This document shows positions 3,001 through 58,550 of a stretch of DNA of 64,000 nt, in pieces. The DNA is from Eledone cirrhosa (Eukaryota): the NCBI GenBank assembly GCA_964016885.1, contig CAXHJY010000740.1, positions 18,026 through 82,025 of the forward strand, given 5' to 3'. Positions within the stretch are counted from its first letter, which is position 1. The number at the start of each line of letters is the position of its first letter. The notes under the pieces were generated by a model. That model made no database searches. It had not been told where the DNA came from and saw only the letters and a list, made by a program, of their open reading frames with translations. The position numbers and the translations under genes are program-made.

Positions 3001-6000
3001 AGTATATTCTCTTCTTGGACCCACCTATGTTGTATCCAACCCCTAGTGCCAGTATATTCTCTTCATGGACCCACCTATGTTGTATCCCACCCCTAGTGCC
3101 AGTACGTTCTCTTCTTGGACCCACCTATGTTGTATCCCACCCCTAGTGCCAGTATATTCTCTTCATCGACCCACCTATGTTGTATCCAACCCCTAGTGCC
3201 AGTACGTTCTCTTCTTGGACCCACCTATGTTGTATCCAACCCCTAGTGGCAGTACGTTCTCTTCTTGGACCCACCTAAGTTGTATCCAACCCCTAGTGCC
3301 AGTACGTTCTCTTCTTGGACCCACCTAAGTTGTATCCAACCCCTAGTGCCAGTACGTTCTCCTCATGGACCCACCTATGTTGTATCCAACCCCTAGTGCC
3401 AGTACGTTCTCTTCATGGACCCACCTATGTTGTATCCCACCCCTAGTGCCAGTATGTTCTCTTCTTGGACCCAACTATGTTGTATCCCACCCATAGTGCC
3501 AGAATATTCTCTTCTTGGACCCACATATGTTGTATCCAACCCCTAGTGCCAGTATATTCTCTTCATGGACCCACCTATGTTGTATCCAACCCCTAGTGCC
3601 AGTACGTTCTCTTCTTGGACCCACCTATGTTGTATCCCACCCATAGTGCCAGTATATTCTCTTCTTGGACCCACATATGTTGTATCCAACCCCTAGTGCC
3701 AGTATATTCTCTTCATGGACCCACCTATGTTGTATCCAACCCCTAGTGCCAGTACGTTCTCTTCTTGGACCCACCTATGTTGTATCCAACCCCTAGTGCC
3801 AGTATATTCTCTTCTTGGACCCACCTATGTTGTATCCAACCCCTAGTGCCAGTATATTCTCTTCTTGGACCCACCTATGTTGTATCCAACCCCTAGTGCC
3901 AGTATATTCTCTTCTTGGACCCACCTATGTTGTATCCCACCCCTAGTGCCAGTACGTTCTCTTCTTGGACCCACCTACGTTGTATCCAACCCCTAGTGCC
4001 AGTATATTCTCTTCTTGGACCCACATATGTTGTATCCAACCCCTAGTGCCAGTATATTCTCTTCTTGGACCCACCTATGTTGTATCCCACCCCTAGTGCC
4101 AGTATATTCTCTTCATGGACCCACCTATGTTGTATCCAACCCCTAGTGCCAGTATATTCTCTTCATGGACCCACCTATGTTGTATCCAACCCCTAGTGCC
4201 AGTACGTTCTCTTCTTGGACCCACCTATGTTGTATCCAACCCCTAGTGCCAGTACGTTCTCGTCATGGACCCACCTATGTTGTATCCAAACCCTAGTGCC
4301 AGTACGTTCTCTTCTTGGAGCCACCTATGTGGTATCGAACCCCTAGTGCCAGTACGTTCTCTTCATGGACCCACCTATGTTGTATCCAACCCCTAGTGCC
4401 AGTACGTTCTCTTCTTGGACCCACCTATGTTGTATCCAACCCCTAGTGCCAGTATATTCTCTTCTTGGACCCACCTATGTTGTATCCCACCCCTAGTGCC
4501 AGTACGTTCTCTTCATGGAGCCACCTATGTTGTATCCAACCGCTAGTGCCACTATATTCTCTTCTTGGACCCACCTATGTTGTATCCAACCCCTAGTGCC
4601 AGTATATTCTCTTCATGGACCCACCTATGTTGTATCCAACCCCTAGTGCCAGTATATTCTCTTCATGGACCCACCTATGTTGTATCCAACCCCTAGTGCC
4701 AGTACGTTCTCTTCTTGGACCCACCTATGTTGTATCCCACCCCTAGTGCCAGTATATTCTCTTTTTGGACCCACCTATGTTGTATCCCACCCCTAGTGCC
4801 AGTATATTCTCTTCTTGGACCCACCTATGTTGTATCCCACCCCTAGTGCCAGTATATTCTCTTCTTGGACCCACCTATGTTGTATCCCACCCCTAGTGCC
4901 AGTATATTCTCTTCTTGGACCCACCTATGTTGTATCCAACCCCTAGTGCCAGTACGTTCGCTTCTTGGACCCACCTATGTTGTATCCCACCCCTAGTGCC
5001 AGTATATTCTATTCTTGGACCCACCTATGTTGTATCCAACCCCTAGTGCCAGTACGTTCTCTTCTTGAACCCACCTATGTTGTATCCAACACCTGGTGCC
5101 AGTACGTTCTCTTCTTGGACCCACCTATGTTGTATCCCACCCCTAGTGCCAGTATATTCTCTTCTTGGACCCACCTATGTTGTATCCAACCCCTAGTGCC
5201 AGTACGTTCTCTTCTTGGACCCACCTATGTTGTATCCAACACCTGGTGCCAGTACGTTCTCTTCTTGGACCCACCTATGTTGTATCCCACCCCTAGTGCC
5301 AGTATATTCTCTTCTTGGACCCACCTATGTTGTATCCCACCCCTAGTGCGAGTATATTCTCTTCTTGGACCCACCTATGTTGTATCCCACCCCTAGTGCC
5401 AGTACGTTCTCTTCTTGAACCCACCTATGTTGTATCCCACCCCTAGTGCCAGTATATTCTCTTCTTGGACCCACCTAAGTTGTATCCAACCCCTAGTGCC
5501 AGTACGTTCTCTTCTTGTACCCACCTATGTTGTATCCAACCCCTAGTGCCAGTATATTCTCTTCTTGGACCCACCTAAGTTGTATCCAACCCCTAGTGCC
5601 AGTACGTTCTCTTCTTGGACCCACCTATGTTGTATCCAACCCCTAGTGCCAGTACGTTCTCTTCATGGACCCACCTATGTTGTATCCAACCCCTAGTGCC
5701 AGTACGTTCTCTTCTTGGACCCACCTAAGTTGTATCCAACCCCTAGTGCCAGTATATTCTCTTCATGGACCTACCTATGTTGTATCCCACTCCTAGTGCC
5801 AGTATATTCTCTTCTTGGACCCACCTATGTTGTATCCAACTCCTAGTGCCAGTATGTTCTCTTCTTGGACCCACCTAAGTTGTATCCAACCCCTAGTGCC
5901 AGTATATTCTCTTCATGGACCCACCTATGTTGTATCCCACCCCTAGTGCCAGTATATTCTCTTCATGGACCCACCTATGTTGTATCCCACCCCTAGTGCC

Positions 6001-9000
6001 AGTATATTCTCTTCTTGGACACACCTATGTTGTATCCAACCCCTAGTGCCAGTATATTCTCTTCATGGACCCACCTATGTTGTATCCCACCCCTAGTGCC
6101 AGTACGTTCTCTTCATGGACCCACCTATGTTGTATCCAACCCCTAGTGCCAGTACGTTCTCTTCATGGACCCACCTATGTTGTATCCAACCCCTAGTGCC
6201 AGTACATTCTCTTCTTTGACCCACCTATATTGTATCCAACCCCTAGTGCCAGTAAGTTCTCTTCTTGGACCCAACTATGTTGTATCCAACCCCTAGTGCC
6301 AGTACGTTCTCTTCATGGACCCACCTATGTTGTATCCAACCCCTAGTGCCAGTATATTCTCTTCTTTGACCCACCTATGTTGTATACAACCCCTAGTGCC
6401 AGTATATTCTCTTCATGGACCCACCTATGTTGTATCCAACCCCTAGTGCCAGTATATTCTCTTCATGGACCCACCTATGTTGTATCCCACCCCTAGTGCC
6501 AGTATATTCTCTTCATGGACCCACCTATGTTGTATCCAACCCCTAGTGCCAGTACGTTCTCTTCTTGGACCCACCTATGTTGTATCCCACCCCTAGTGCC
6601 AGTATATTCTCTTCTTGTACCCAACTATGTTGTATCCAACCCCTAGTGCCAGTACGTTCTCTTCTTGGACCCACCTATGTTGTATCCAACCCCTAGTGAC
6701 AGTACGTTCTCTTCTTGGACCCACCTATGTTGTATCCAACCCCTAGTGCCAGTACGTTCTCTTCATGGACCCACCTATGTTGTATCCAAACCCTAGTGCC
6801 AGTACGTTCTCTTCTTGGACCCACCTATGTTGTATCCAACCCCTAGTGCCAGTACGTTCTCTTCATGGACCCACCTATGTTGTATCCCACCCCTAGTGCC
6901 AGTACGATCTCTTCTTGGACCCACCTATGTTCTATCCAACCCCTAGTGCCAGTATATTCTCTTCTTGGACCCACCTATGTTGTATCCAACACCTAGTGCC
7001 AGTACGTTCTCTTCTTGGACCCACCTATGTTGTATCCCACCCCTAGTGCCAGTATATTCTCTTCTTGGACCCACCTATGTTGTATCCCACCCCTAGTGCC
7101 AGTATATTCTCTTCTTGGACCCACCTATGTTGTATCCAACCCCTAGTGCCAGTACGTTCTCTTCTTGAACCCACCCCTAGTGCCAGTATATTCTCTTCTT
7201 GGACGCACCTAAGTTGTATCCAACCCCTAGTGCCAGTACGTTCTCTTCTTGGACCCACCTATGTTGTATCCAACCCCTAGTGCCAGTACGTTCTCTTCAT
7301 GGACCCACATATGTTGTATCCAACCCCTGGTGACAGTACGTTCTCTTCTTGGACCCACCTATGTTGTATCCCACCCCTAGTGCCAGTATATTCTCTTCTT
7401 GGACCCACCTATGTTGTATCCCACCCCTAGTGCCAGTACGTTCTCTTCTTGAACCCGCCCCTAGTGCCAGTATATTCTCTTCTTGGACCCACCTAAGTTG
7501 TATCCAACCCCTAGTGCCAGTACGTTCTCTTCTTGGACCCACCTATGTTGTATCCAACCCCTAGTGCCAGTATATTCTCTTCTTGGACCCACCTATGTTG
7601 TATCCAACCCCTGGTGCCAGTACGTTCTCTTCTTGGACCCACCTAAGTTGTATCCAACCCCTAGTGCCAGTACGTTCTCTTCTTGGACCCACCTAAGTTG
7701 TATCCAACCCCTAGTGCCACTATATTCTCTTCTTGGACCCACCTATGTTGTATCCCACCCCTAGTGCCAGTATATTCTCTTCTTGGACCCACCTATGTTG
7801 TATCCCACCCCTAGTGCCAGTATATTCTCTTCATGGACCCACCTATGTTGTATCCAACCCCTAGTGCCAGTACGTTCTCTTCTTGGACCCACCTATGTTG
7901 TATCCAACCCCTAGTGCCAGTACGTTCTCTTCTTGGACCCACCTATATTGTATCCAACCCCTAGTGCCAGTATATTCTCTTCTTGGACCCACCTATGTTG
8001 TATCCAACCCCTAGTGCCAGTACGTTCTCTTCTTTGACCCACCTATATTGTATCCAACCCCTAGTGCCAGTAAGTTCTCTTCTTGGACCCACCTAAGTTG
8101 TATCCAACCCCTAGTGCCAGTATATTCTCTTCATGGACCCACCTATGTTGTATCCCACCCTTAGTGCCAGTATATTCTCTTCTTGGACCCACCTATGTTG
8201 TATCCAACCCCTAGTGCCAGTACGTTCTCTTCATGGACCCACCTATGTTGTATCCAACCCCTAGTGCCAGTACGTTCTCTTCTTGGACCCACCTAAGTTG
8301 TATCCAACCCCTAGTGCCAGTATATTCTCTTCATGGACCTACCTATGTTGTATCCCACTCCTAGTGCCAGTATATTCTATTCTTGGACCCACCTATGTTG
8401 TATCCAACTCCTAGTGCCAGTATGTTCTCTTCTTGGACCCACCTAAGTTGTATCCAACCCCTAGTGCCAGTATATTCTCTTCATGGACCCACCTATGTTG
8501 TATCCCACCCCTAGTGCCAGTATATTCTCTTCATGGACCCACCTATGTTGTATCCCACCCCTAGTGCCAGTATATTCTCTTCTTGGACCCACCTATGTTG
8601 TATCCAACCCCTAGTGCCAGTATATTCTCTTCATGGACCCACCTATGTTGTATCCCACCCCTAGTGCCAGTACGTTCTCTTCATGGACCCACCTATGTTG
8701 TATCCAACCCCTAGTGCCAGTATATTCTCTTCATGGACCCACCTATGTTGTATCCAACCCCTAGTGCCAGTACGTTCTCTTCATGGACCCACCTATGTTG
8801 TATCCAACCCCTAGTGCCAGTATATTCTCTTCATGGACCCACCTATGTTGTATCCAACCCCTAGTGCCAGTACGTTCTCTTCATGGACCCACCTATGTTG
8901 TATCCAACCCCTAGTGCCAGTATATTCTCTTCTTGGACCCACATATGTTGTATACAACCCCTAGTGCCAGTATATTCTCTTCTTGGACCCACATATGTTG

Positions 9001-12000
9001 TATCCAACTCCTAGTGACAGTATATTCTCTTCTTGGACCCACCTATGTTGTATCCAACCCCTACTGCCAGTATATTCTCTTCTTGGGCCCACATATGTTG
9101 TATCCAACCCCTAGTGCCAGTATATTGTCTTCTTGGACCCACCTATGTTGTATCCAACCCCTAGTGCCAGTACGTTCTCTTCATGGACCCACCTATGTTG
9201 TATCCACACCCTTGTGCCAGTATATTCTCTTCTTTGACCCACCTATGTTGTATCCAACCCCTAGTGCCAGTATATTCTCTTCATGGACCCACCTATGTTG
9301 TATCCAACCCCTAGTGCCAGTATATTCTCTTCATGGACCCACCTATGTTGTATCCAACCCCTAGTGCCAGTACGTTCTCTTCTTGGACCCACCTATGTTG
9401 TATCCCACCCCTAGTGCCAGTATATTCTATTCTTGGACCCACATATGTTGTATCCCACCCCTAGTGCCAGTATATTCTCTTCATGGACCCACCTATGTTG
9501 TATCCAACCCCTAGTGCCAGTACGTTCTCTTCTTGGACCTACCTATGTTGTATCCAACCCCTAGTGACAGTACGTTCTCTTCTTGGACCCACCTATGTTG
9601 TATCCAACCCCTAGTGCCAGTACGATCTCGTCATGGACCCACCTATGTTGTATCCAAACCCTAGTGCCAGTACGTTCTCTTCTTGGACCCACCTATGTTG
9701 TATCCAACCCCTAGTGCCAGTAAGTTCTCTTCATGGACCCACCTATGTTGTATCCAACCCCTAGTGCCAGTACGTTCTCTTCTTGGACCCACCTATGTTG
9801 TATCCAACCCCTAGTGCCAGTATATTCTCTTCTTGGACCCACCTATGTTGTATCCAACCCCTAGTGCCAGTAAGTTCTCTTCATGGACCCACCTATGTTG
9901 TATCCAACCCCTAGTGCCAGTACGTTCTCTTCATGGACCCACCTATGTTGTATCCAACCCCTAGTGCCAGTACGTTCTCTTCTTGGACCCACCTATGTTG
10001 TATCCCACCCCTAGTGCCAGTATATTCTCTTCTTGGACCCACCTATGTTGTATCCAACCCCTAGTGCCAGTATATTCTCTTCATGGACCCACCTATGTTG
10101 TATCCAACCCCTAGTGCCAGTACGTTCTCTTCTTGGACCCACCTATGTTGTATCCCACCCATAGTGCCAGTATATTCTCTTCTTGGACCCACATATGTTG
10201 TATCCAACCCCTAGTGCCAGTATATTCTCTTCATGGACCCACCCCCTAGTGCCAGTACGTTCTCTTCATGGAGCCACCTATGTTGTATCCAACCGCTAGT
10301 GCCACTATATTCTCTTCTTGGACCCACCTATGTTGTATCCAACCCCTAGTGCCAGTATATTCTCTTCATGGACCCACCTATGTTGTATCCAACCTCTAGT
10401 GCCAGTATATTCTCTTCATGGACCCACCTATGTTGTATCAAACCCCTAGTGCCAGTACGTTCTCTTCTTGGACCCACCTATGTTGTATCCCACCCCTAGT
10501 GCCAGTATATTCTCTTCTTGGACCCACATATGTTGTATCCAACCCCTAGTGCCAGTATATTCTCTTCTTGGACCCACATATGTTGTATCCAACCCCTAGT
10601 GCCAGTACGTTCTCTTCTTGGACCCACCTATGTTGTATCCCACCCCTAGTGCCAGTATATTCTCTTCTTGGACCCACCTATGTTTTATCCAACCCCTAGT
10701 GCCAGTATATTCTCTTCATGGACCCACCTATGTTGTATCCAACCCCTAGTGCCAGTATATTCTCTTCATGGACCCACCTATGTTGTATCCAACCCCTAGT
10801 GCCAGTACGTTCTCTTCTTGGACCCACCTATGTTGTATCCAACCCCTAGTGCCAGTATATTCTCTTCTTGGACCCACCTATGTTGTATCCAACCCCTAGT
10901 GCCAGTACGTTCTCTTCTTGGACCCACCTATGTTGTATCCAACCCCTAGTGCCAGTACGTTCTCTTCATGGACCCACCTATGTTGTATCCAACCCCTAGT
11001 GCCAGTACGTTCTCTTCTTGGACCCACCTATGTTGTATCCAACCCCTAGTGCCAGTACGTTCTCTTCTTGGACCCACCTAAGTTGTATCCCACCCCTAGT
11101 GCCAGTATATTCTCTTCATGGACCCACCTATGTTGTATCCCACCCCTAGTGACAGTATATTCTCTTCATGGACCCACCTATGTTGTATCCCACCCCTAGT
11201 GCCAGTATATTCTCTTCATGGACCCACCTATGTTGTATCCAACCCCTAGTGCCAGCACGTTCTCTTCATGGACCCACCTATGTTGTATCCAACCCCTAGT
11301 GCCAGTACGTTCTCTTCTTTGACCCACCTATGTTGTATCCAACCCCTAGTGCCAGTACGTTCTCTTCTTGGACCCACCTATGTTGTATCCCACCCCTAGT
11401 GCCACTACGTTCTCTTCTTGGACCCAACTATGTTGTATCCCACCCATAGTGCCAGTATATTCTCTTCTTGGACCCACATATGTCGTATCCAACCCCTAGT
11501 GCCAGTACGTTCTCTTCTTGGACCCACCTAAGTTGTATCCAACCCCTAGTGCCAGTATATTCTCTTCTTGGACCCACCTATGTTGTATCCAACCCCTAGT
11601 GCCAGTATATTCTCTTCTTGGACCCACCTATGTTGTATCCCACCCCTAGTGCCAGTACGTTCTCTTCTTGGACCCACCTATGTTGTATCCCACCCCTAGT
11701 GCCAGTATATTCTCTTCATGGACCCACCTATGTTGTATCCAACCCCTAGTGCCAGTATATTCTCTTCTTGGACCCACCTATGTTGTATCCCACCCCTAGT
11801 GCCAGTATATTCTCTTCTTGGACCCACCTATGTTGTATCCAACCCCTAGTGCCAGTATATTCTCTTCATGGACCCACCTATGTTGTATCCCACCCCTAGT
11901 GCCAGTACGTTCTCTTCTTGGACCCACCTATGTTGTATCCCACCCCTAGTGCCAGTATATTCTCTTCATCGACCCACCTATGTTGTATCCAACCCCTAGT

Positions 12001-15000
12001 GCCAGTACGTTCTCTTCTTGGACCCACCTATGTTGTATCCAACCCCTAGTGGCAGTACGTTCTCTTCTTGGACCCACCTAAGTTGTATCCAACCCCTAGT
12101 GCCAGTACGTTCTCTTCTTGGACCCACCTAAGTTGTATCCAACCCCTAGTGCCAGTACGTTCTCCTCATGGACCCACCTATGTTGTATCCAACCCCTAGT
12201 GCCAGTACGTTCTCTTCATGGACCCACCTATGTTGTATCCCACCCCTAGTGCCAGTATGTTCTCTTCTTGGACCCAACTATGTTGTATCCCACCCATAGT
12301 GCCAGAATATTCTCTTCTTGGACCCACATATGTTGTATCCAACCCCTAGTGCCAGTATATTCTCTTCATGGACCCACCTATGTTGTATCCAACCCCTAGT
12401 GCCAGTACGTTCTCTTCTTGGACCCACCTATGTTGTATCCCACCCATAGTGCCAGTATATTCTCTTCTTGGACCCACATATGTTGTATCCAACCCCTAGT
12501 GCCAGTATATTCTCTTCATGGACCCACCTATGTTGTATCCAACCCCTAGTGCCAGTACGTTCTCTTCTTGGACCCACCTATGTTGTATCCAACCCCTAGT
12601 GCCAGTATATTCTCTTCTTGGACCCACCTATGTTGTATCCAACCCCTAGTGCCAGTATATTCTCTTCTTGGACCCACCTATGTTGTATCCAACCCCTAGT
12701 GCCAGTATATTCTCTTCTTGGACCCACCTATGTTGTATCCCACCCCTAGTGCCAGTACGTTCTCTTCTTGGACCCACCTACGTTGTATCCAACCCCTAGT
12801 GCCAGTATATTCTCTTCTTGGACCCACATATGTTGTATCCAACCCCTAGTGCCAGTATATTCTCTTCTTGGACCCACCTATGTTGTATCCCACCCCTAGT
12901 GCCAGTATATTCTCTTCATGGACCCACCTATGTTGTATCCAACCCCTAGTGCCAGTATATTCTCTTCATGGACCCACCTATGTTGTATCCAACCCCTAGT
13001 GCCAGTACGTTCTCTTCTTGGACCCACCTATGTTGTATCCAACCCCTAGTGCCAGTACGTTCTCGTCATGGACCCACCTATGTTGTATCCAAACCCTAGT
13101 GCCAGTACGTTCTCTTCTTGGAGCCACCTATGTGGTATCGAACCCCTAGTGCCAGTACGTTCTCTTCATGGACCCACCTATGTTGTATCCAACCCCTAGT
13201 GCCAGTACGTTCTCTTCTTGGACCCACCTATGTTGTATCCAACCCCTAGTGCCAGTATATTCTCTTCTTGGACCCACCTATGTTGTATCCCACCCCTAGT
13301 GCCAGTACGTTCTCTTCATGGAGCCACCTATGTTGTATCCAACCGCTAGTGCCACTATATTCTCTTCTTGGACCCACCTATGTTGTATCCAACCCCTAGT
13401 GCCAGTATATTCTCTTCATGGACCCACCTATGTTGTATCCAACCCCTAGTGCCAGTATATTCTCTTCATGGACCCACCTATGTTGTATCCAACCCCTAGT
13501 GCCAGTACGTTCTCTTCTTGGACCCACCTATGTTGTATCCCACCCCTAGTGCCAGTATATTCTCTTTTTGGACCCACCTATGTTGTATCCCACCCCTAGT
13601 GCCAGTATATTCTCTTCTTGGACCCACCTATGTTGTATCCCACCCCTAGTGCCAGTATATTCTCTTCTTGGACCCACCTATGTTGTATCCCACCCCTAGT
13701 GCCAGTATATTCTCTTCTTGGACCCACCTATGTTGTATCCAACCCCTAGTGCCAGTACGTTCGCTTCTTGGACCCACCTATGTTGTATCCCACCCCTAGT
13801 GCCAGTATATTCTATTCTTGGACCCACCTATGTTGTATCCAACCCCTAGTGCCAGTACGTTCTCTTCTTGAACCCACCTATGTTGTATCCAACACCTGGT
13901 GCCAGTACGTTCTCTTCTTGGACCCACCTATGTTGTATCCCACCCCTAGTGCCAGTATATTCTCTTCTTGGACCCACCTATGTTGTATCCAACCCCTAGT
14001 GCCAGTACGTTCTCTTCTTGGACCCACCTATGTTGTATCCAACACCTGGTGCCAGTACGTTCTCTTCTTGGACCCACCTATGTTGTATCCCACCCCTAGT
14101 GCCAGTATATTCTCTTCTTGGACCCACCTATGTTGTATCCCACCCCTAGTGCGAGTATATTCTCTTCTTGGACCCACCTATGTTGTATCCCACCCCTAGT
14201 GCCAGTACGTTCTCTTCTTGAACCCACCTATGTTGTATCCCACCCCTAGTGCCAGTATATTCTCTTCTTGGACCCACCTAAGTTGTATCCAACCCCTAGT
14301 GCCAGTACGTTCTCTTCTTGTACCCACCTATGTTGTATCCAACCCCTAGTGCCAGTATATTCTCTTCTTGGACCCACCTAAGTTGTATCCAACCCCTAGT
14401 GCCAGTACGTTCTCTTCTTGTACCCACCTATGTTGTATCCCACCCCTAGTGCCAGTACGTTCTCTTCTTGGACCCACCTATGTTGTATCCAACCGCTAGT
14501 GCCAGTACGTTCTCTTCTTGTACCCACCTATGTTGTATCCAACCCCTAGTGCCAGTATATTCTCTTCTTAGACCCACCTATGTTGTATCCAACCCCTAGT
14601 GCCAGTATATTCTCTTCTTGGACCCACCTATGTTGTATCCAACCCCTAGTGCCAGTATATTCTCTTCTTGGACCCACCTATGTTGTATCCAACCCCTAGT
14701 GCCAGTACGTTCTCTTCTTGGACCCACCTACGTTGTATCCAACCCCTAGTGCTAGTATATTCTCTTCATGGACCCACCTATGTTGTATCCAACCCCTAGT
14801 GCCAGTATATTCTCTTCTTGGACCCACCTATGTTGTATCCCACCCCTAGTGCCAGTACGTTCTCTTCTTGGACCCACCTATATTGTATCCAACCCCTAGT
14901 GCTAGTATATTCTCTTCATGGACCCACCTATGTTGTATCCAACCCCTAGTGCCAGTACGTTCTCTTCTTGGACCCACCTATGTTGTATCCAACCCCTAGT

Positions 15001-15345
15001 GCTAGTATATTCTCTTCATGGACCCACCTATGTTGTATCCCACCCCTAGTGCCAGTATATTCTCTTCTTGGACCCACCTATGTTGTATCCAACCCCTAGT
15101 GCCAGTATATTCTCTTCTTGGACCCACCTATGTTGTATCCCACCCCTAGTGCCAGTATATTCTCTTCTTGGACCCACCTATGTTGTATCCAACCCCTAGT
15201 GCCAGTATATTTTCTTCTTGGACCCACCTATGTTGTATCCAACCCCTAGTGCCAGTACGTTCTCTTCTTGGACCCACCTATGTTATATCCAACCCCTAGT
15301 GCCAGTATATTCTCTTCATGGACCCACCTATGTTGTATCTACCCC
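1..15345. repeat. 50-bp tandem satellite, ~300 copies, runs off the left edge of the window
   Basis: Consensus TGGACCCACCTATGTTGTATCCAACCCCTAGTGCCAGTATATTCTCTTCT repeats with 50-bp period; a few shortened units (~1490, ~7170, ~7455, ~10245); decays at ~15340. Confidence 0.98.
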
Positions 15346-15874
15346 CCAGGACCAGCACTAATGACTACATCCTGCTCACACCACGTTGCCTATAGAACAC
15401 CTTTCTCTTCATGGACATGCAATAGGGTGAAGCATTAACGGCATCGTTCTCTCTGGTTTTGGAGGTCTGGTGAATGACATGGACACTGCCCTTTCCTTCA
15501 GACTTTCCAATTAAAACTTACTCTGACCAAATAAAATAAAATAAAATAAATACAAACAAACATATAATATTTACATCTACAAAGACAATGGATTGGCAGA
15601 ATCGTTAGAGCGTCGGACAAAATGTGCTGTAGTATAAATTACGGTTCTTAACGTTTTAAATTCAAATCCTTTTCATCTTTCCAGCACCGGTATAGACAAT
15701 CCACCCCCGCCACAAAAATATGTGACCTTGTTCCAATGTTAAACATCGATCAGGGCCAATGCTACCATTAGAGGCCAACTAGGTAGTCATCAAAGACGTA
15801 GACCTCAAAGAAGAACCTTACTGAATCTTAAAGGATCATATATTCATACAAATGCGTGCAATTAAATATATAAT

Positions 15875-18034: not shown

Positions 18035-18690
18035 CGTGGTTTAGTGGTTGGGTTGTTTGGTTCACGATCGTAAGGTCGTGAGTTTGACTACCAAGACCCT
18101 TTATTTCACGTTACTCCAGTCCATTGTAGCCTTGAGCAGGACACTTTATTTCACGTTACTCCAGTCCATTGTAGCCTTGAGCAGGACACTTTATTTCACG
18201 TTACTCCAGTCCATTGTAGCCTTGAGCAGGACACTTTATTTCACGTTACTCCAGTCCATTGTAGCCTTGAGCAGGACACTTTATTTCACGTTACTCCAGT
18301 CCATTGTAGCCTTGAGCAGGACACTTTATTTCACGTTACTCCAGTCCATTGTATCCTTGAACAAGACACTTTTTTTTCACGTTACTCCAGTCCATTGTAT
18401 CCTTGAACAAGACACTTTATTTCACGTTACTCCAGTCCATTGTATCCTTGAGCAAGACACTTTATTTCACGTTACTCCAGTCCATTGTGTCCTTGAGCAA
18501 GACACTTTATTTTACGTTACTCCAGTCCATTGTGTCCTTGAGCAAGACACTTTATTTTCACATTGCTCCAGCCCACTCAGTTGGCAAAAATGAGTTGTAC
18601 CTATAATTCATAGAACCAGTCTTGTCACACACTGCATCATACGGAATCTCCCTGAGAACTACGTAAAGGGTACATGTGTCTGTGGAATGC
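18035..18690 (+). mobile_element. tRNA-headed SINE containing an internal 45-bp minisatellite (~10 copies, 18099-18572)
   Basis: Head GTGGTTTAGTGG...GTGAGTTTGACT; unit CTTGAGCAGGACACTTTATTTCACGTTACTCCAGTCCATTGTAGC; SINE body resumes at CCACTCAGTTGGCAAAAATGAG. Confidence 0.85.
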
Positions 18691-29401: not shown

Positions 29402-29807
29402 TGTGTTCTTAGAGACTGCTACTTCATGTCTGGCTGTGTCTGTGGCCGATAAGGTGGGAACCAGTAAGGCCAGGAGAGAGAGAGATATAGAGTAAAATGT
29501 CTGCTACATCGTGAACCTTAACACGGACTGCTTGCTTCGGTCTCCCTGGTCCCCAGATTCCTTAACTCCTTGTATTTATAATAGTGCTATAGTTAGAAGG
29601 ATGTGTATATGAAGTTGATTTATGATCAGCCAAATGGATATCGTCTCCCCAACAAGCTGGGATCAGGGGTCAAGTGGTATGTACGTTTATCATCCTTGAC
29701 TTGACAGGTCAATGGTGGGAAATTCCCCATAATGGGTGGTTTCAGATAGGAGAACTCTTAGATTCGGTTTCGAATCTTCGCCGGGTAATTTATAGGAGAA
29801 TTCCATT

Positions 29808-31447
29808 ACAGATCTTTCAATGTCTTCGATCACAGATCTTTCAATGTCTTCGATCACAGATCTTTCAATGTCTTCGATCACTGATCTTCCAATGTCTTCC
29901 ATCACAGATCTTCCAATGTCTTCCATCATAGATCTTTCAATGTCTTCCATCATAGATCTTTCAATGTCTTCCATCATAGATCTTTCAATGTCTTCCATCA
30001 TAGATCTTTCAATGTCTTCGATCACAGATCTTCCAATGTCTTCCATCATAGATCTTTCAATGTCTTCCATCATAGATCTTCCAATGTCTTCCATCATAGA
30101 TCTTTCAATGTCTTCGGTCATAGATCTTTCAATGTCTTCGGTCATAGATCTTTCAATGTCTTCCATCATAGATCTTCCAATGTCTTCCATCATAGATCTT
30201 TCAATGTCTTCGGTCATAGATCTTCCAATATCTTCGATCATATATCTTCCAATACCTTCGATCATAAATCTTTCAATGTCTTCCATCATAAATCTTTCAA
30301 TGTCTTCCATCATAGATCTTTAAATGTCTTCCATCATAGATCTTTCAATGTCTTCGATCACAGATCTTTCAATGTCTTCGATCACAGATCTTTCAATGTC
30401 TTCGATCACAGATCTTTCAATGTCTTCGATCACAGATCTTTCAATGTCTTCGATCACAGATCTTTCAATGTCTTCGATCACAGATCTTTCAATGTCTTCG
30501 ATCACAGATCTTTCAATGTCTTCGATCACAGATCTTTCAATGTCTTCGATCACAGATCTTTCAATGTCTTCCATCATAGATCTTTCAATGTCTTCGATCA
30601 CAGATCTTCCAATGTCTTCCATCATAGATCTTCCAATGTCTTCCATCATAGATCTTTCAATGTCTTCCATCATAGATCTTTCAATGTCTTCCATCATAGA
30701 TCTTTCAATGTCTTCCATCATAGATCTTCCAATGTCTTCCATCATAGATCTTTCAATGTCTTCCATCATAGATCTTCCAATGTCTTCCATCATAGATCTT
30801 TCAATGTCTTCGATCACAGATCTTTCAATGTCTTCGATCACAGATCTTCCAATGTCTTCCATCATAGATCTTCCAATGTCTTCCATCATAGATCTTTCAA
30901 TGTCTTCCATCATAGATCTTTCAATGTCTTCCATCATAGATCTTCCAATGTCTTCCATCATAGATCTTTCAATGTCTTCCATCATAGATCTTTCAATGTC
31001 TTCCATCATAGATCTTTCAATGTCTTCCATCATAGATCTTTCAATGTCTTCCATCATAGATCTTCCAATGTCTTCCATCATAGATCTTTCAATGTCTTCG
31101 ATCACAGATCTTCCAATGTCTTCCATCATAGATCTTTCAATGTCTTCCATCATAGATCTTCCAATGTCTTCCATCATAGATCTTCCAATGTCTTCCATCA
31201 TAGATCTTCCAATGTCTTCCATCATAGATCTTTCAATGTCTTCGGTCATAGATCTTTCAATGTCTTCCATCATAGATCTTCCAATGTCTTCCATCACAGA
31301 TCTTCCAATGTCTTCCATCATAGATCTTTCAATGTCTTCCATCATAGATCTTTCAATGTCTTCGGTCATAGATCTTCCAATATCTTCGATCATATATCTT
31401 CCAATACCTTCGATCATAAATCTTTCAATGTCTCTGGTCATAGATCT
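29808..31447. repeat. 24-bp tandem minisatellite, ~68 copies
   Basis: Unit TCAATGTCTTCCATCATAGATCTT with CGATCAC/CGGTCAT variants. Confidence 0.97.
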
Positions 31448-36659: not shown

Positions 36660-36860
36660 TAAATGTAATTTGAGTTTTTCGAATATTAATAATAACATTC
36701 GTTACGTTTGCAATTATACAAACAAGTCTCAATTGTATAGCCATGTCAATAGAATGAACACTTCATTCTATTGACATGGCTATAAAATTGAGACTTGTTT
36801 GTATAATTGCAAACGTAACGAATGTTATTATTAATATTCGAAAAACTCAGATTACATTTA
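36660..36860. repeat. ~100-bp-arm near-perfect palindrome
   Basis: TAAATGTAAT...TAGAATGAA cac TTCATTCTA...ATTACATTTA. Confidence 0.92.
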
Positions 36861-36921
36861 TTGTATTCAGCCACCTAGAGTGAAATTTTCTTTTTTACAT
36901 ATATACATACATATTTACATC

Positions 36922-36989
<68 letters not shown>

Positions 36990-37049
36990 CATATATATGC
37001 ATATATACAATATATTAACAAATGGAAACTATATTTATAAAACCATATT

Positions 37050-37114
37050 TATTTCATTATACATATTTCAAGGACACCAAAGCAAATTATGGTGCGCTTT
37101 CATCAGATAAAATA
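37050..37114 (-). ncRNA. Type I hammerhead ribozyme, complete core
   Basis: TATTTTAT-CTGATGA-AAGCGCACCA(loop)TGGTGTCCTT-GAA-ATATGTAT-A-ATGAAATA; 8-bp stem I; AATAAA overlaps and follows the 3' strand. Confidence 0.8.
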
Positions 37115-37296
37115 TAATATAGATCAGTTTTATAAACAAATATTGACAAATCCCTTAAAGAATGCTTCCAACCGACATGGTCGCATATATGTGTGTGTAT
37201 ATATATATATACATATATATATATATACAGATATATATATACATATATATCTACATATATATATATACACATACATATACATATATATATATATAA

Positions 37297-39133: not shown

Positions 39134-39611
39134 CTGCCAACTCGTTTTCGAGTACGGCCACTACTTTATATCCATGTAGGAGAACTCCTACCGATGCGCT
39201 GAACGAGTGAGACTTTTTAGTCCAGCCAGCGACTTGAAAACTCTGGTACAAACACTACACCTGTGACAATTATTGACGCATAGTGCGGGTCCCATGTGAC
39301 GACAAGTGCAGAGAGATCTCCAGATATAAAGCAATGCCTGTGCCGTGAAGCTTTTATAGTGAGCAAAGGCACTGCACAAAGCCAGTCCCACTCTCTTAAC
39401 CAAGATGATATTTACCAAAAAGAAGAACAAGTCAACATCATTGGATACCATCAGGGTTGCAGGTGTTATATCAGAGTTTTCCTTCTCCTAGAATTCTGCC
39501 TTGACAAAGGCTAAGGGGTCATCTCTCCCGGTGATTTTGGATTGCCATTGACCCTTAAGAGCTCCTTTGCCCTTTGACAGGTTTTGTGTTTAGTCCTGCA
39601 GGATGTCCAAA
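39134..39611 (-). mobile_element. Non-autonomous RTE-derived element (copy 1)
   Basis: Ends in [16 protein letters not shown] (RTE C-terminal zinc-finger-like motif); closely matches 56263-56753. Confidence 0.75.
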
Positions 39612-39677
39612 CATACATACATACACACATACACACACACATATATATATACACACATATATATATATATACATATA

Positions 39678-40071
39678 TGTAGGAGGTGAGTTTTATTGTA
39701 GTACAATAAAGCAATGCAGATATCGGATAAGAAGCACTCTACAGTTTGTAGGACTGGAGTATACATAATATATAAGATCAAAAGATGGTTAAATGAGTTC
39801 CATGTATTTTATATATGTTGATTTAAAACTGCACTATCCACAAGTGTTTTTTAGCCTTCATATCATGTCCTACTGTTTTATCTGATGAAAACACAAATAT
39901 TATTGCATGATGATATTTGTTTTTGAAATGCGCATAATAAAATACATGGAACTCCTTTAACCATCTTTTGTTCTTATATATTATGTATACTCCAGTCCCA
40001 CAAACTGTACAGTGCTTCTTATCCGATATCTGCATTGCTTTATTGTACTACAATAAAACTCACCTCCTACA
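39678..40071 (+). mobile_element. HHR fold-back element family H with intact hammerhead at 39874-39944
   Basis: TGTTTTAT-CTGATGA-AAACACAAATATTAT(loop)ATGATATTTGTTTTT-GAA-ATGCGCAT-A-ATAAAATA; ~135-bp inverted arms; (TA)n flanks. Confidence 0.88.
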
Positions 40072-40791
40072 TATATATATATATATATTCTCAGCGCTTA
40101 AAAGCCGAAAATTCGGCTTCGTACATTGTTTGTGTAAATAAAAAATATATATATATATATTTTAATTGCTATTATAAATGATGAAATAAATTAGGAGACC
40201 ACAATGTATCAAATACTACGTAGAAGGGTTTGAAAAATGTCTAACTACTTATGGAGCTCTTTAGTGTCAAGTGCAGCTTAATTAGCTAAGTTTCTTAAGT
40301 TACCATTGTTAAGCCGTTTGACTCAATACCACGAATATTAGGTTTCAGCCAACTGTATGACTGTGAATCTAGTAGGACGCTTCTGAAAGTGGCATAACGA
40401 TTTCTCCCATTGGCACAGGGCCATATATTTCTAGTGGATTGAAAGAATGCAGTGTAAGGAATACCTGCTGGCCGAGAAGACAACAATTCATATTATGTAA
40501 CCGCTGTTGTGATGTTGCCACTTCTAGAAGAGTTGCACGCCCCCACCACCACCACCACCACCACCCCCACTCACAGGAACTAGCACATCTGGAGTAAATT
40601 TTACAAAACTTTGAATCGAACCAGTAATTACAACAGGCAGGGTCAGGGTGTACCTATTCTAAACTGGATACACACAGATCTATTTTGTATTTTATTTTCA
40701 TTGGCAAGATACAATACAAAGAGGATTCGGGTCGAATTTTAATTTAGAACGTAGATGTACATAAAAAATATTTCTATCAGTGGTAAAAGGG

Positions 40792-42372
40792 CACACATCT
40801 GTAGGGCAGGGGTATACGTCAAACAATTGGTTCAGGATCACACATCTGTAAGGCAGGGGTATACGTCAAACAATTGGTTCAGGACCACACATCTGTAAAG
40901 CAGGGGTATACATCAAACAATTGGTTCAGGACCACACATCTGTAAAGCAGGGGTATACGTCAAACAATTGGTTCAAGACCACACATCTGTAAGGCAGGGG
41001 TATACGTCAAACAATTGGTACAGGACCTCACATATGTAAGGCAGGGGTATACGTCAAACAATTGGTACAGGACCTCACATATGTAAGGCAGGGGTATACG
41101 TCAAACAATTGGTTCAGGACCACACATCTGTAAAGCGGGGGTATACGTCAAACAATTGGTTCAAGACCACACATCTGTAAGGCAGGGGTATACGTCAAAC
41201 AATTGGTACAGGACCTCACATCTGTAAGGCAGGGGTATACGTCAAACAATTGGTACAGGACCTCACATCTGTAAGGCAGGGGTATACGTCAAACAATTGG
41301 TACAGGACCTCACATATGTAAGGCAGGGGTATACGTCAAACAATTGGTTCAGGACCACACATCTGTAAGGCAGGGGTATACGTCAAACAATTGGTACAGG
41401 ACCTCACATATGTAAGGCAGGGGTATACGTCAAACAATTGGTACAGGACCTCACATATGTAAGGCAGGGGTATACGTCAAACAATTGGTACAGGACCACA
41501 CATCTGTAAGGCCGGGGTATACGTCAAACAATTGGTACAGGACCTCACATATGTAAGGCAGGGGTATACGTCAAACAATTGGTACAGGACCTCACATATG
41601 TAAGGCAGGGGTATACGTCAAACAATTGGTACAGGACCTCACATATGTAAGGCAGGGGTATACGTCAAACAATTGGTACAGGACCTCACATCTGTAAGGC
41701 AGGGGTATACGTCAAACAATTGGTACAGGACCTCACATATGTAAGGCAGGGGTATACGTCAAACAATTGGTTCAGGACCACACATCTGTAAGGCAGGGGT
41801 ATACGTCAAACAATTGGTACAGGACCTCACATATGTAAGGCAGGGGTATACGTCAAACAATTGGTACAGGACCTCACATATGTAAGGCAGGGGTATACGT
41901 CAAACAATTGGTACAGGACCTCACATATGTAAGGCAGGGGTATACGTCAAACAATTGGTACAGGACCTCACATCTGTAAGGCAGGGGTATACGTCAAACA
42001 ATTGGCACAGGACCACACATCTGTAGGGCAGGGCCATACATCAAACAATTAGCACAGGACCACACATCTGAAGGGCAGGGGCATACATCAAATTGGCACA
42101 GGACGGGTATACGTCAACTGAGTCAACAAATTGGCACAGGGTCACACATGTAGGGCAGGGGTATACGTCAAACAATTAGCACGGGGCCACATATTTGTAG
42201 GGCAGGGGTATACATCAAACAATTGGCACGGGGCCACACATCTGAAGGGCAGGGGTATACGTCAACTGAGTCAACCAATTGACACAGGGTCACACATGTA
42301 GGGCAGGGGTATACGTCAAACTATTGGCACGGGGTCACATATTTGTAGGGCAGGGCTATACGTCAACTGGAT
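40792..42372. repeat. 47-bp minisatellite, ~33 copies, degenerate at the right end
   Basis: Unit CACACATCTGTAAGGCAGGGGTATACGTCAAACAATTGGTTCAGGAC. Confidence 0.96.
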
Positions 42373-45418: not shown

Positions 45419-45837
45419 TACACACACATCACACACACATATATATATATATATACACACACATAAATATACATACACACACATCACACATATATATACA
45501 TACACACACACATAAATATACATACACACACATATATACACACACACACATATATATATACACACACACATATATATATATACATACACCTACATACAAG
45601 TAAAAACAGCACTGCGGTCTCCTGGTACGGACGCTGTAACCAACATCCCGGTAAGTACTTTCAAGAGAAACAATACAACAATGTATCAAAACACGTTAAT
45701 GTGATGTCATCCAGGAGCTGTTAGAATATTTATTTCTATTTCCATCAGTGTAGCGATGAGATCATTGGCCTCTAATGGTGATCTTGTAGACCCATACTAC
45801 ATACACCCATAACGATCTTCCCTAAAGACCCTCAATC

Positions 45838-48800
45838 TACTACATACATCCATAACGACCCCCCACTCTACTACATATTTCAATAACGACCCTCATTCTA
45901 CAACATATTTGAATAACGACCCTCATTCCATTACATATTTCAATAACGACCCTCATTCTACAACATATTTCAATAACGACCCTCATTCTACAACATATTT
46001 CAATAACGACCCTCATTCTACAACATATTTCAATAACGACCCTCATTCTACAACATATTTCAATAACGACCCTCATTCTACAACATATTTCAATAACGAC
46101 CCTCATTCCATTACATATTTCAATAACGACCCTCATTCTACAACATATTTCAATAACGACCCCCACTCTACTACATATTTCAATAACGACCCTCATTCTA
46201 CAACATATTTCAATAACGACCCTCATTCCATTACATATTTCAATAACGACCCTCATTCTACAACATATTTCAATAACGACCCTCATTCCATTACATATTT
46301 CAATAACGACCCTCATTCCACAACATATTTCAATAACGACCCTCATTCTACAACATATTTCAATAACGACCCTCATTCTACAACATATTTCAATAACGAC
46401 CCTCATTCTACAACATATTTCAATAACGACCCTCATTCTACAACATATTTCAATAACGACCCTCATTCTACAACATATTTCAATAACGACCCTCATTCCA
46501 TTACATATTTCAATAACGACCCTCATTCCATTACATATTTCAATAACGACCCTCATTCTACAACATATTTCAATAACGACCCTCATTCCATTACATATTT
46601 CAATAACGACCCTCATTCTACAACATATTTCAATAACGACCCTCATTCCATTACATATTTCAATAACGACCCTCATTCTACAACATATTTCAATAACGAC
46701 CCTCATTCTACAACATATTTCAATAACGACCCTCATTCTACAACATATTTCAATAACGACCCTCATTCCATTACATATTTCAATAACGACCCTCATTCCA
46801 TTACATATTTCAATAACGACCCTCATTCTACAACATATTTCAATAACGACCCTCATTCCATTACATATTTCAATAACGACCCTCATTCTACAACATATTT
46901 CAATAACGACCCTCATTCTACAACATATTTCAATAACGACCCTCATTCTACAACATATTTCAATAACGACCCTCATTCTACAACATATTTCAATAACGAC
47001 CCTCATTCTACAACATATTTCAATAACGACCCTCATTCCATTACATATTTCAATAACGACCCTCATTCTACAACATATTTCAATAACGACCCTCATTCCA
47101 TTACATATTTCAATAACGACCCTCATTCCATTACATATTTCAATAACGACCCTCATTCTACAACATATTTCAATAACGACCCTCATTCCATTACATATTT
47201 CAATAACGACCCTCATTCTACAACATATTTCAATAACGACCCTCATTCTACAACATATTTCAATAACGACCCTCATTCTACAACATATTTCAATAACGAC
47301 CCTCATTCTACAACATATTTCAATAACGACCCTCATTCCATTACATATTTCAATAACGACCCTCATTCCATTACATATTTCAATAACGACCCTCATTCTA
47401 CAACATATTTCAATAACGACCCCCACTCTACTACATATTTCAATAACGACCCTCATTCTACAACATATTTCAATAACGACCCTCATTCCATTACATATTT
47501 CAATAACGACCCTCATTCTACAACATATTTCAATAACGACCCTCATTCCATTACATATTTCAATAACGACCCTCATTCCATTACATATTTCAATAACGAC
47601 CCTCATTCCATTACATATTTCAATAACGACCCTCATTCCATTACATATTTCAATAACGACCCTCATTCTACAACATATTTCAATAACGACCCTCATTCCA
47701 TTACATATTTCAATAACGACCCTCATCCCATTACATATTTCAATAACGACCCTCATTCTACAACATATTTCAATAACGACCCTCATTCTACAACATATTT
47801 CAATAACGACCCTCATTCCATTACATATTTCAATAACGACCCTCATTCCATTACATATTTCAATAACGACCCTCATTCTACAACATATTTCAATAACGAC
47901 CCTCATTCCATTACATATTTCAATAACGACCCTCATTCTACAACATATTTCAATAACGACCCTCATTCCATTACATATTTCAATAACGACCCTCATTCCA
48001 TTACATATTTCAATAACGACCCTCATTCTACAACATATTTCAATAACGACCCTCATTCCATTACATATTTCAATAACGACCCTCATTCTACAACATATTT
48101 CAATAACGACCCTCATTCCATTACATATTTCAATAACGACCCTCATTCTACAACATATTTCAATAACGACCCTCATTCTACAACATATTTCAATAACGAC
48201 CCTCATTCCATTACATATTTCAATAACGACCCTCATTCCATTACATATTTCAATAACGACCCTCATTCTACAACATATTTCAATAACGACCCTCATTCTA
48301 CAACATATTTCAATAACGACCCTCATTCTACAACATATTTCAATAACGACCCTCATTCTACAACATATTTCAATAACGACCCTCATTCCATTACATATTT
48401 CAATAACGACCCTCATTCCATTACATATTTCAATAACGACCCTCATTCTACAACATATTTCAATAACGACCCTCATTCCATTACATATTTCAATAACGAC
48501 CCTCATTCTACAACATATTTCAATAACGACCCTCATTCTACAACATATTTCAATAACGACCCTCATTCCATTACATATTTCAATAACGACCCTCATTCTA
48601 CAACATATTTCAATAACGACCCTCATTCTACAACATATTTCAATAACGACCCTCATTCTACAACATATTTCAATAACGACCCTCATTCCATTACATATTT
48701 CAATAACGACCCTCATTCCATTACATATTTCAATAACGACCCTCATTCCATTACATATTTCAATAACGACCCTCATTCTACAACATATTTCAATAACGAC

Positions 48801-49602
48801 CCTCATTCTACAACATATTTCAATAACGACCCTCATTCTACAACATATTTCAATAACGACCCTCATTCTACAACGACCCTCATTCCATTACATATTTCAA
48901 TAACGACCCTCATTCCATTACATATTTCAATAACGACCCTCATTCTACAACATATTTCAATAACGACCCTCATTCCATTACATATTTCAATAACGACCCT
49001 CATTCTACAACATATTTCAATAACGACCCTCATTCTACAACATATTTCAATAACGACCCTCATTCTACAACATATTTCAATAACGACCCTCATTCTACAA
49101 CATATTTCAATAACGACCCTCATTCCATTACATATTTCAATAACGACCCTCATTCCATTACATATTTCAATAACGACCCTCATTCTACAACATATTTCAA
49201 TAACGACCCCCACTCTACTACATATTTCAATAACGACCCTCATTCTACAACATATTTCAATAACGACCCTCATTCCATTACATATTTCAATAACGACCCT
49301 CATTCTACAACATATTTCAATAACGACCCTCATTCCATTACATATTTCAATAACGACCCTCATTCCATTACATATTTCAATAACGACCCTCATTCTACAA
49401 CATATTTCAATAACGACCCTCATTCCATTACATATTTCAATAACGACCCTCATCCCATTACATATTTCAATAACGACCCTCATTCTACAACATATTTCAA
49501 TAACGACCCTCATTCCATTACATATTTCAATAACGACCCTCATCCCATTACATATTTCAATAACGACCCTCATTCTACAACATATTTCAATAACGACCCT
49601 CA
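45838..49602. repeat. 30-bp minisatellite, ~125 copies
   Basis: Unit CAATAACGACCCTCATTC(TACAA/CATTA)CATATTT; one 13-bp deletion at ~48872. Confidence 0.98.
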
Positions 49603-49789
49603 CTTATTCCAAATATAAAATAAATCTTTCTTTGATTATTTGATGAAACTGAATTCACACACACATACGTTACTTCAACTAAATTGTTGAGGGCTAGCTT
49701 TGTCACACACTCTGTTTCACTGAATCTCCCTGAGAACTACGTTAGTGGTACACATGTCTGTGAAGTTCTCGGCTACACACATATATATA

Positions 49790-51212: not shown

Positions 51213-53393
<2,181 letters not shown>

Positions 53394-53395
<2 letters not shown>

Positions 53396-53824
53396 TATAA
53401 GATCAAAAGATGGTTAAAGGAGTTCAATATATTTTATTATGCGCATTTCAAAAACAAACATCATCAAACAATAATATTTGTGTTTTCATCAGATAAAACA
53501 GGAGAACATGATATGAAGGCTAAAAAAACACTTGTTGATAGTGCAGTTTTAAATCAACATATCAACATATGTTGATTTAAAACTGCACTATCAACAAGTG
53601 TTTTTTTAGCCTTCATATCATGTTCTCCTGTTTTATCTGATGAAAACACAAATATTATTGTTTGATGATGTTTGTTTTTGAAATACGCATAATAAAATAT
53701 ATTGAACTCCTTTAACCATCTTTTGATCTTATATTATGCATACTCCAGTCCCCACATACTGTAGAGTGCTTCTTATCCGATATCTGCATTGCTTTATTGT
53801 ACTACAATAAAACTCACCTCCTAC
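53394..53824 (+). mobile_element. HHR family H palindrome with two opposed hammerheads (-53430-53500, +53629-53699)
   Basis: ~170-bp arms centred at ~53563; both cores read CTGATGA...GAA-AT(G/A)CGCAT-A-ATAAAATA. Confidence 0.88.
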
Positions 53825-56262
<2,438 letters not shown>

Positions 56263-58308: not shown

Positions 58309-58550
58309 CATATATATACATATATGTAGGAGGTGAGTTTTATTGTAGTACAATAAAGCAATGCAGATATCGGATAAGAAGTACTCTACAGTTTGTATAC
58401 ATAATATATAAGATCAAAAGATGGTTAAATGAGTTCCATGTATTTTATATATGTTGATTTAAAACCTTCATATCATGTCTTCCCATTTTATCTGATGAAA
58501 ACACAAATGTTATTGCATGATGATATTTGTTTTTGATACATATATACATA

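Follow-up and report, generated by a model that had tools for sequence, protein, structure and literature searches.

Head-to-head insertions of a Penelope-like element in Eledone cirrhosa: arm junctions and the predicted hammerhead cleavage site

Structure of the window locus

The window is a stretch of 64,000 nucleotides from Eledone cirrhosa (contig CAXHJY010000740.1, positions 18,026 to 82,025). It contains two inverted arms of a repeat unit which carries a predicted hammerhead ribozyme. The unit is numbered from u1 (window 39813) to u259 (40071); the predicted cut lies between u124 (A39936) and u125. The features of this locus, and of related copies in the window, are as follows.

39609..39677, no strand: (TA/CA)n target microsatellite, left flank, read from the sequence
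39678..39812, minus strand: left arm, u259 back to u125, ending at the first base past the predicted cut; alleles of a subfamily other than that of the right arm
39813..40071, plus strand: right arm, u1-u259, running from the likely capped start across the entire hammerhead to the tail end
39874..39944, plus strand: motif of a type I hammerhead, with cleavage predicted between 39936 and 39937
39893-39904 with 39909-39920, plus strand: 12-bp core helix of stem II, part of the hammerhead at 39874..39944
39990..40071, plus strand: tail of ~82 bases, from u167-177 to u259 (the two recurrent 3' ends)
53383..53825, no single strand: sibling insertion; short arm u1-177 on the minus strand and tailed arm u1-259 on the plus strand, with a u1/u1 join and a 4-base insert
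58325..58536, no single strand: second copy with the same junction (58448/58449); left arm u259-u125 minus 11 bases, right piece u1-u114 without u17-42
37010-37190, minus strand: second hammerhead-bearing Penelope-like family (also at loci L303-L362), head-to-head with a short-plus-tail build

The copy is bordered on the right by a (TA)n run at 40072-40088. It had been predicted that the left arm is the reverse complement of the 3' cleavage product, and this is borne out: 131 of 135 positions pair between 39678-39812 and 39937-40071 (mismatches at 39739, 39750, 39778 and 39794), and pairing is lost from 39813/39936 onward, at the predicted cut. A 1-base bulge would let four further bases (TATG/CATA) pair; the arm boundary is exact only if the alignment is ungapped. 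The tail is usually found on one arm per insertion; the window copy has it on both.

All parts of the hammerhead, including the long stem II and palindromic stem III of the original prediction, are found in the sequence. Stem I pairs 39874-39881 with 39937-39944 (read from the sequence), the core consists of CTGATGA at 39882-39888 and GAAA at 39925-39928, and stem II occupies 39889-39924. Stem III is the palindrome ATGCGCAT at 39928-39935, and the predicted cut follows A39936. By motif, the core CUGANGA/GAAA, the NUH site and the three helices of a type I hammerhead are all present. No hammerhead match was obtained from Rfam at 39874-39944, at either the gathering or the E-value threshold, and the monomer does not fold better than shuffled sequences (z -0.9). 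The identification is based on the core motifs and on conservation over 279 distinct arms. Across these, deviations from the most frequent letter amount to 0.7% in the 11 core columns; a common stem I variant swaps a G-U for an A-U and keeps the pair, and the common variants of stem II all retain the 12-bp helix. The feature at 39874-39944 is thus confirmed, at the level of sequence, as a type I hammerhead whose cleavage is predicted only. A search of run data found no RNA runs containing the stretch. Contigs from four runs, aligned to L301, gave no peaks of starts or ends, although contigs are unsuited to revealing such peaks.

Other repeats are present in the window. A near-perfect palindrome of ~200 bases lies between TA runs at 36660-36862; it is unrelated to either hammerhead family and may be a head-to-head pair of a third element. 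Tandem arrays with repeats of 50, 45, 24, 47 and 30 bases occupy 1-15346, 18092-18575, 29801-31447, 40794-42265 and 45823-49608, respectively; the 50-base array spans 15 kb.

The parent element

The 3.0-Gb genome contains 24,452 exact copies of a 21-mer taken from u138-158, against 0 for the control; it therefore holds more than 24,000 arms of the unit, from about 12,000 insertions. Longer copies extend upstream of u1; downstream of u259, an ORF begins ~85 bases further on. Two loci, L301 and L302, contain frames of 775 and 738 aa with the unit on both sides (pLTR-ORF-pLTR). Both ORFs have a YRDD motif and a C-terminal YEC...YFG nuclease core. They also have motifs of the Hydra clade: RLRWIA (in which the K is not kept), HSDKT, CNCPIKNKC or CNCRIKNKC, ICNLC and ICLH. 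CCHH is absent, and there is only one cysteine within the YEC-YFG core. The Atlas neighbours of the ORFs, at 0.95-0.98, are eukaryotic, with GIY-YIG, RVT_1 or HTH_animal on 18-100% of members; Pfam scans of the whole ORFs and of two domains, and PDB sequence scans, gave nothing useful.

Motifs and Atlas neighbours together point to a single ORF with a reverse transcriptase (RT) and a GIY-YIG nuclease, as in endonuclease-bearing (EN+) Penelope-like elements (PLEs). The pLTRs, the inverted 5'-truncated copy and the one-sided tail of such elements are also found (L301, L302 and the arm pairs described below), as are the motif set of the Hydra clade and its combination of a hammerhead with a (TA)n target. 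On this sequence evidence u1-u259 is the pLTR/5' UTR of a Penelope element that is Hydra-like by motifs. That the locus is a Penelope-like insertion, as originally proposed, is upheld by the RT/GIY-YIG-type ORFs that adjoin the unit. The element and the type of insertion are both of known kinds, and the PLE hammerhead is present.

The 3' UTRs of the autonomous copies (L301, L302 and L035) are variable in length and made of local tandem duplications; L035 also has, upstream, part of the nuclease end in inverted orientation. Additional divergent Hydra-like ORFs are present as fragments at L302:6388-7884 and at L029, L114 and L133, which indicates that several such families share (TA)n sites in one genome.

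Anatomy of insertions across the genome

Copies of the unit are head-to-head pairs within (TA)n, which forms both flanks. The 3' end of an arm lies either at u167-177 (short) or at u259 (tail), and 184 of 198 pairs, drawn largely from junction-selected loci, combine one short and one tailed arm. Between the two arms of an insertion, 37 of 1131 polymorphic cells are discordant, as against 39% in shuffled pairs; this low difference implies that both arms come from one source locus. In junctions with a u1 arm on one side, it is mostly the tailed arm that has been shortened (26/29 at u125; 56/60 at u108-118).

The 5' ends of arms are concentrated at u1 and at the stem II foot, with a weaker peak at the cut. 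In 51 junctions with a complete u1 arm, the base inserted directly after it is C 17 times and G twice. Other reverse transcriptases are known to add C templated by the cap, and genomic read-through would give G. The surroundings of u1 also fit an initiator consensus. From the extra C and the initiator fit, we infer that u1 is probably a capped RNA start inside the pLTR.

A cut-site junction is not the typical end of an arm: most junctions lie at u1 or at the stem II foot, and the first 30 matches to the 21-mer, an unselected sample, all read through the cut. Fourteen of these arms extend upstream of u1 (12 recognised by script, and L065 and L074 by eye); the starts of the others are at u1-3 (9 arms), u5-95 (6) and u114 (1).

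Two known classes of repeat were considered and rejected. A MITE would be one fixed unit with uniform ends and centre; here centres and arm ends vary by copy, and the arms follow RNA landmarks. Non-LTR retrozymes are head-to-tail, cut-to-cut tandems; here the pairs are head-to-head, and a single head-to-tail join at the cut (L136) was found among the 75 partner-free matches at u125 described below.

Junctions near the predicted cut site

For the main test, every exact match to a pattern in which a u1 arm meets a partner that begins at about u116-136 was taken, 98 in total. Eight of these belong to an unrelated transposase-bearing repeat (L215, L239 and L240) which carries the same motif pair. 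Among the remaining 90, 77 were parsed and 13 were judged by eye; the latter are five joins at u116-118, seven internal deletions or complex junctions, and one join at u135. From the parsed matches five complex junctions and two internal deletions were set aside, which left 34 that are ambiguous by microhomology and 36 that are clean. Ambiguous junctions are uninformative; 21 of them include u125, via AT, ATA or CATA microhomology.

The clean starts fall at u122 (1), u124 (1), u125 (10), u126 (2), u127 (3), u128 (1), u129 (5), u130 (2), u132 (4), u133 (5) and u135 (2). With the window pair counted as one, u125 holds 9 of 35 clean starts in u119-136 (P 9e-5 over 18 positions; P 1e-3 over the 13 positions where joins can be unambiguous). 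There is also a step at the cut, with 2 clean starts in u119-124 versus 13 in u126-131. It should be noted that u125 begins with AT, so that a u127 start with an AT stutter mimics a u125 join. From one cut-site insertion to another, the alleles, inserts, arm ends and flanks vary, and so does the arm that has the tail; the differences in alleles, inserts and flanks indicate that the peak arises from independent insertions. The cut site is thus a real local peak among clean junctions, but a minor one.

Its minor rank is evident from a wider set, in which 99 of the first 100 of 290 matches were parsed, with a pattern that is blind beyond u108, and 19 complex junctions or internal deletions were set aside. 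Most of the 80 clean junctions (54) start at or before u118, 7-17 bases upstream of the cut, with a peak at u110-113; 2 start at u119-124, 7 include u125 and 17 start later. Breakpoints are placed non-randomly relative to the predicted cleavage site (H17), with a local peak at the cut, but the cut is not their main end: 54 of 80 stop earlier.

Junctions between two shortened arms number 225. The first 50, read by eye, are mostly microhomology joins; they include three perfect palindromes at the cut, five junctions centred on the stem III palindrome, and at least six with an arm which keeps u124, the base before the cut. Two more palindromes with both arms at the cut occur among the partner-free matches at u125. 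The partner-free counts (75 at u125; 22, 19 and 21 at u129, u121 and u113) were rejected as a test: by hand count, internal indels (25) and joins into TA runs (13) inflate the figure for u125, and the patterns, which exclude four bases before the start, have position-dependent pass rates and miss the window's own blunt join. The initial search was biased toward the window junction and was left out of the rates. At three loci (L050, L129 and G000:C12:41222423), same-strand jumps leave out part of the hammerhead, and the sequence continues precisely from u125.

The stem II stop and the second hammerhead family

The strongest internal stop, u110-113 (window 39922-39925), is at the entry to hammerhead stem II in both families. 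Stops fall on the foot of a helix (u132-133 for stem I, u111-113 for stem II). The stem II stop is likely a record of RNA that was folded during copying.

In the second family a small hairpin lies close to the start, and the tail is ~85 bases long. Among the first 30 of its 70 junctions, 15 stop 11-17 bases before the cut, at the stem II foot, and 3 reach exactly the cut (one with an extra C, one with an AT overlap). The other 40, judged by eye, gave no unambiguous cut-site joins and two compatible ones. The stem II stop is thus replicated in the second family; the cut-site peak is not clearly so.

Nature of the window copy

The window copy is atypical. It is one of only 3 in 198 pairs in which both arms end at u259, and its arms differ at 4 of 9 shared polymorphic columns; pairs that are chimeric in this way make up 2 of the 3 both-u259 pairs versus 5 of 184 ordinary pairs. 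The left arm of the window copy matches the one at 58325-58448, the partner of which has alleles of the same subfamily; the right arm of the window copy is of another subfamily. By its alleles, the window copy is a chimera of two subfamilies. It is likely to be secondary, an older junction having been re-copied and then paired with an arm of another subfamily; possibly it is an assembly chimera.

Recurrence of the junction at about 58448 had been noted. The junction is present there, but it does not count as an independent replicate: it has the left-arm alleles and the rare junction of the 39812 copy, 19 kb away on the same contig. The exact blunt join was found in 5 of the 98 matches, and two of the five are within 19 kb on the window's contig. 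Judged from these alleles, the 58448/58449 and 39812 junctions probably represent the same event, and the two copies would derive from one original insertion which was later re-copied or recombined across u1-u41. The sibling insertion at 53383-53825, which had been overlooked, is ordinary: both arms read through the hammerhead and start at u1, not at the cut. A single locus such as this one proves little by itself.

Origin of the junctions

The insertion is a back-to-back pair of partial 5'-end copies. There is a slightly better than even case for the following origin, in which the 39812 arm descends from a template RNA which had cleaved itself at its hammerhead. Two reverse transcriptases would likely be primed at the two sides of a break within a (TA)n repeat. 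The mRNA, presumably capped, would start at u1, and the protein would begin copying at two positions inside the RNA, a short way past the ribozyme, as has been found in vitro for the element of the green anole (PMC11167929). Each cDNA would run toward the 5' end of the RNA, and the two would then be joined, either bluntly or through microhomology of 1-8 bases. The majority of templates would be uncut, their cDNAs reaching the cap or stalling at stem II; a small minority would be cut, and cDNAs from these would run off at u125. Junctions between a cut and an uncut arm would need two RNAs of one source locus, because a cut RNA cannot also yield a u1 arm. The two 3' ends per insertion match the two internal RT start sites and the two-strand extension demonstrated in vitro for the anole element (PMC11167929).

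The original prediction was that the inverted arm is cDNA which ran to the 5' end of a self-cleaved RNA. The arms are most likely cDNA, and there is a local cut-site peak from independent insertions, but as a rule for arms the proposal fails. It remains tenable for a minor class of junctions which stands out statistically in one family of the two, and its support is not from the window locus.

The main rival, though less probable, is an account without cutting: reverse transcriptase would stop or jump at the folded hammerhead (at the feet of stems I and II, or at the three-way junction where stem I ends), with some joins placed at u125 by AT-rich microhomology or AT stutter. The largest peak, at u110-113, is indeed structural and recurs in the same register in the second family, which has no clear peak at the cut. 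There is a cluster at the foot of stem I (u132-133), u125 is itself the last base of stem I, and uncut RNA was dominant in vitro (PMC11167929). Against this, a stop at the foot of stem III would fall at u123-124, where there is one clean start (u124, with none at u123) versus nine at u125, and the rise from 2 to 13 across the site is abrupt. AT inserts, judged by eye, are also uncommon at the u108-118 joins.

It is unlikely that the cut-site junctions are later central deletions of longer u1/u1 palindromes, guided by short homologies. Internal deletions do occur (6 of 99 junctions in the wider set), and the short/short class shows that both arms are often shortened together, many at microhomologies; however, in the cut-site joins the u1 arm is intact down to its final base, in three cases with an extra C, which a central deletion would remove, and the blunt joins lack homology. 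A second start site at u125 was also considered and set aside: u1 arms often have a cap-like extra C, and clean u125 arms lack it. Amplification of one ancestral junction as a MITE-like unit holds locally for the 39812 and 58448 copies, with their common left-arm alleles and junction, but is very improbable in general and, as a proposal for the whole genome, is refuted by allele patterns: cut-site junctions elsewhere differ in subfamily alleles, tailed arm, inserts (none, C, AT, TATGT) and flanks, and two of the few matches with the exact blunt join are the window's own.

If self-cleavage of the template is accepted, a broader and more tentative reading follows, which we consider doubtful. The family's junctions would be a germline record of the RNA template, in which the cap, the folded stem II and the hammerhead cut each leave a peak; with u125 as the product of cleavage, cutting would occur in vivo, inside the insertion complex. 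Allele-matched cut/uncut junctions would then reflect two RNAs of one locus carried together, possibly paired via the palindromic stem III, the duplex of which is predicted at -10.5 kcal/mol. A likeness to the dimerisation signal of retroviral RNA is suggested. With more than 24,000 arms in the genome, the ends of RNA can be read from DNA.

Comparison with known systems

Elements of the Hydra clade (Craig et al. 2021, PMC8557442) resemble this one in the single ORF with RT followed by a C-terminal GIY-YIG-type nuclease, in the RW, DKT, CxCX5C, CxxC and CxH motifs, and in the lack of CCHH. They also have a pLTR hammerhead, a (TA)n target, an inverted 5'-truncated copy and a one-sided tail. The element described here differs in its length (3.3-3.9 kb with 3' UTR repeats, versus generally <3 kb), its tail (~82 bases versus 30-40), its RWI in place of RWK, and its long stem II. 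File S2 of that 2021 survey does not list this hammerhead, and the survey calls the function of PLE hammerheads unclear.

The minimal type I hammerheads of PLEs (Cervera and de la Pena 2014, PMC4209133) are similar in their pLTR position and in a short palindromic helix III suited to cleavage as a dimer, and pairs on opposite strands 100-700 bp apart were reported. In that 2014 description in vivo evidence was said to be lacking, and junctions were not mapped to the cut; 'cleavage site' and 'inverted' are absent from its text. A literature search that covered few subscription papers found no paper mapping PLE inversion junctions to the hammerhead cut. Non-LTR retrozymes (PMC7229834; bioRxiv 10.64898/2026.07.22.740005) are likewise short, non-coding, hammerhead-bearing repeats derived from PLEs. 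They are arranged head-to-tail, from cut to cut, whereas the pairs here are head-to-head and bounded by the start site and the RT start sites.

A further parallel is PAc/Poseidon of the green anole (Frangieh et al. 2024, PMC11167929), with two internal RT start sites bounding the tail, extension of both target strands, AT-rich targets, a predicted dimer and a mostly uncut template. It differs in that its ORF starts inside the ribozyme; here the ribozyme is in the 5' UTR, well before the ATG. In that 2024 in vitro study uncut RNA was the dominant substrate, hammerhead cutting was dispensable, and no RNA reads began at the cut. No in vivo sign of cut RNA was found for the anole element, whereas a minor junction peak occurs at the cut here. 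Cutting is at most a minor route in E. cirrhosa, in agreement with the in vitro work on the anole element.
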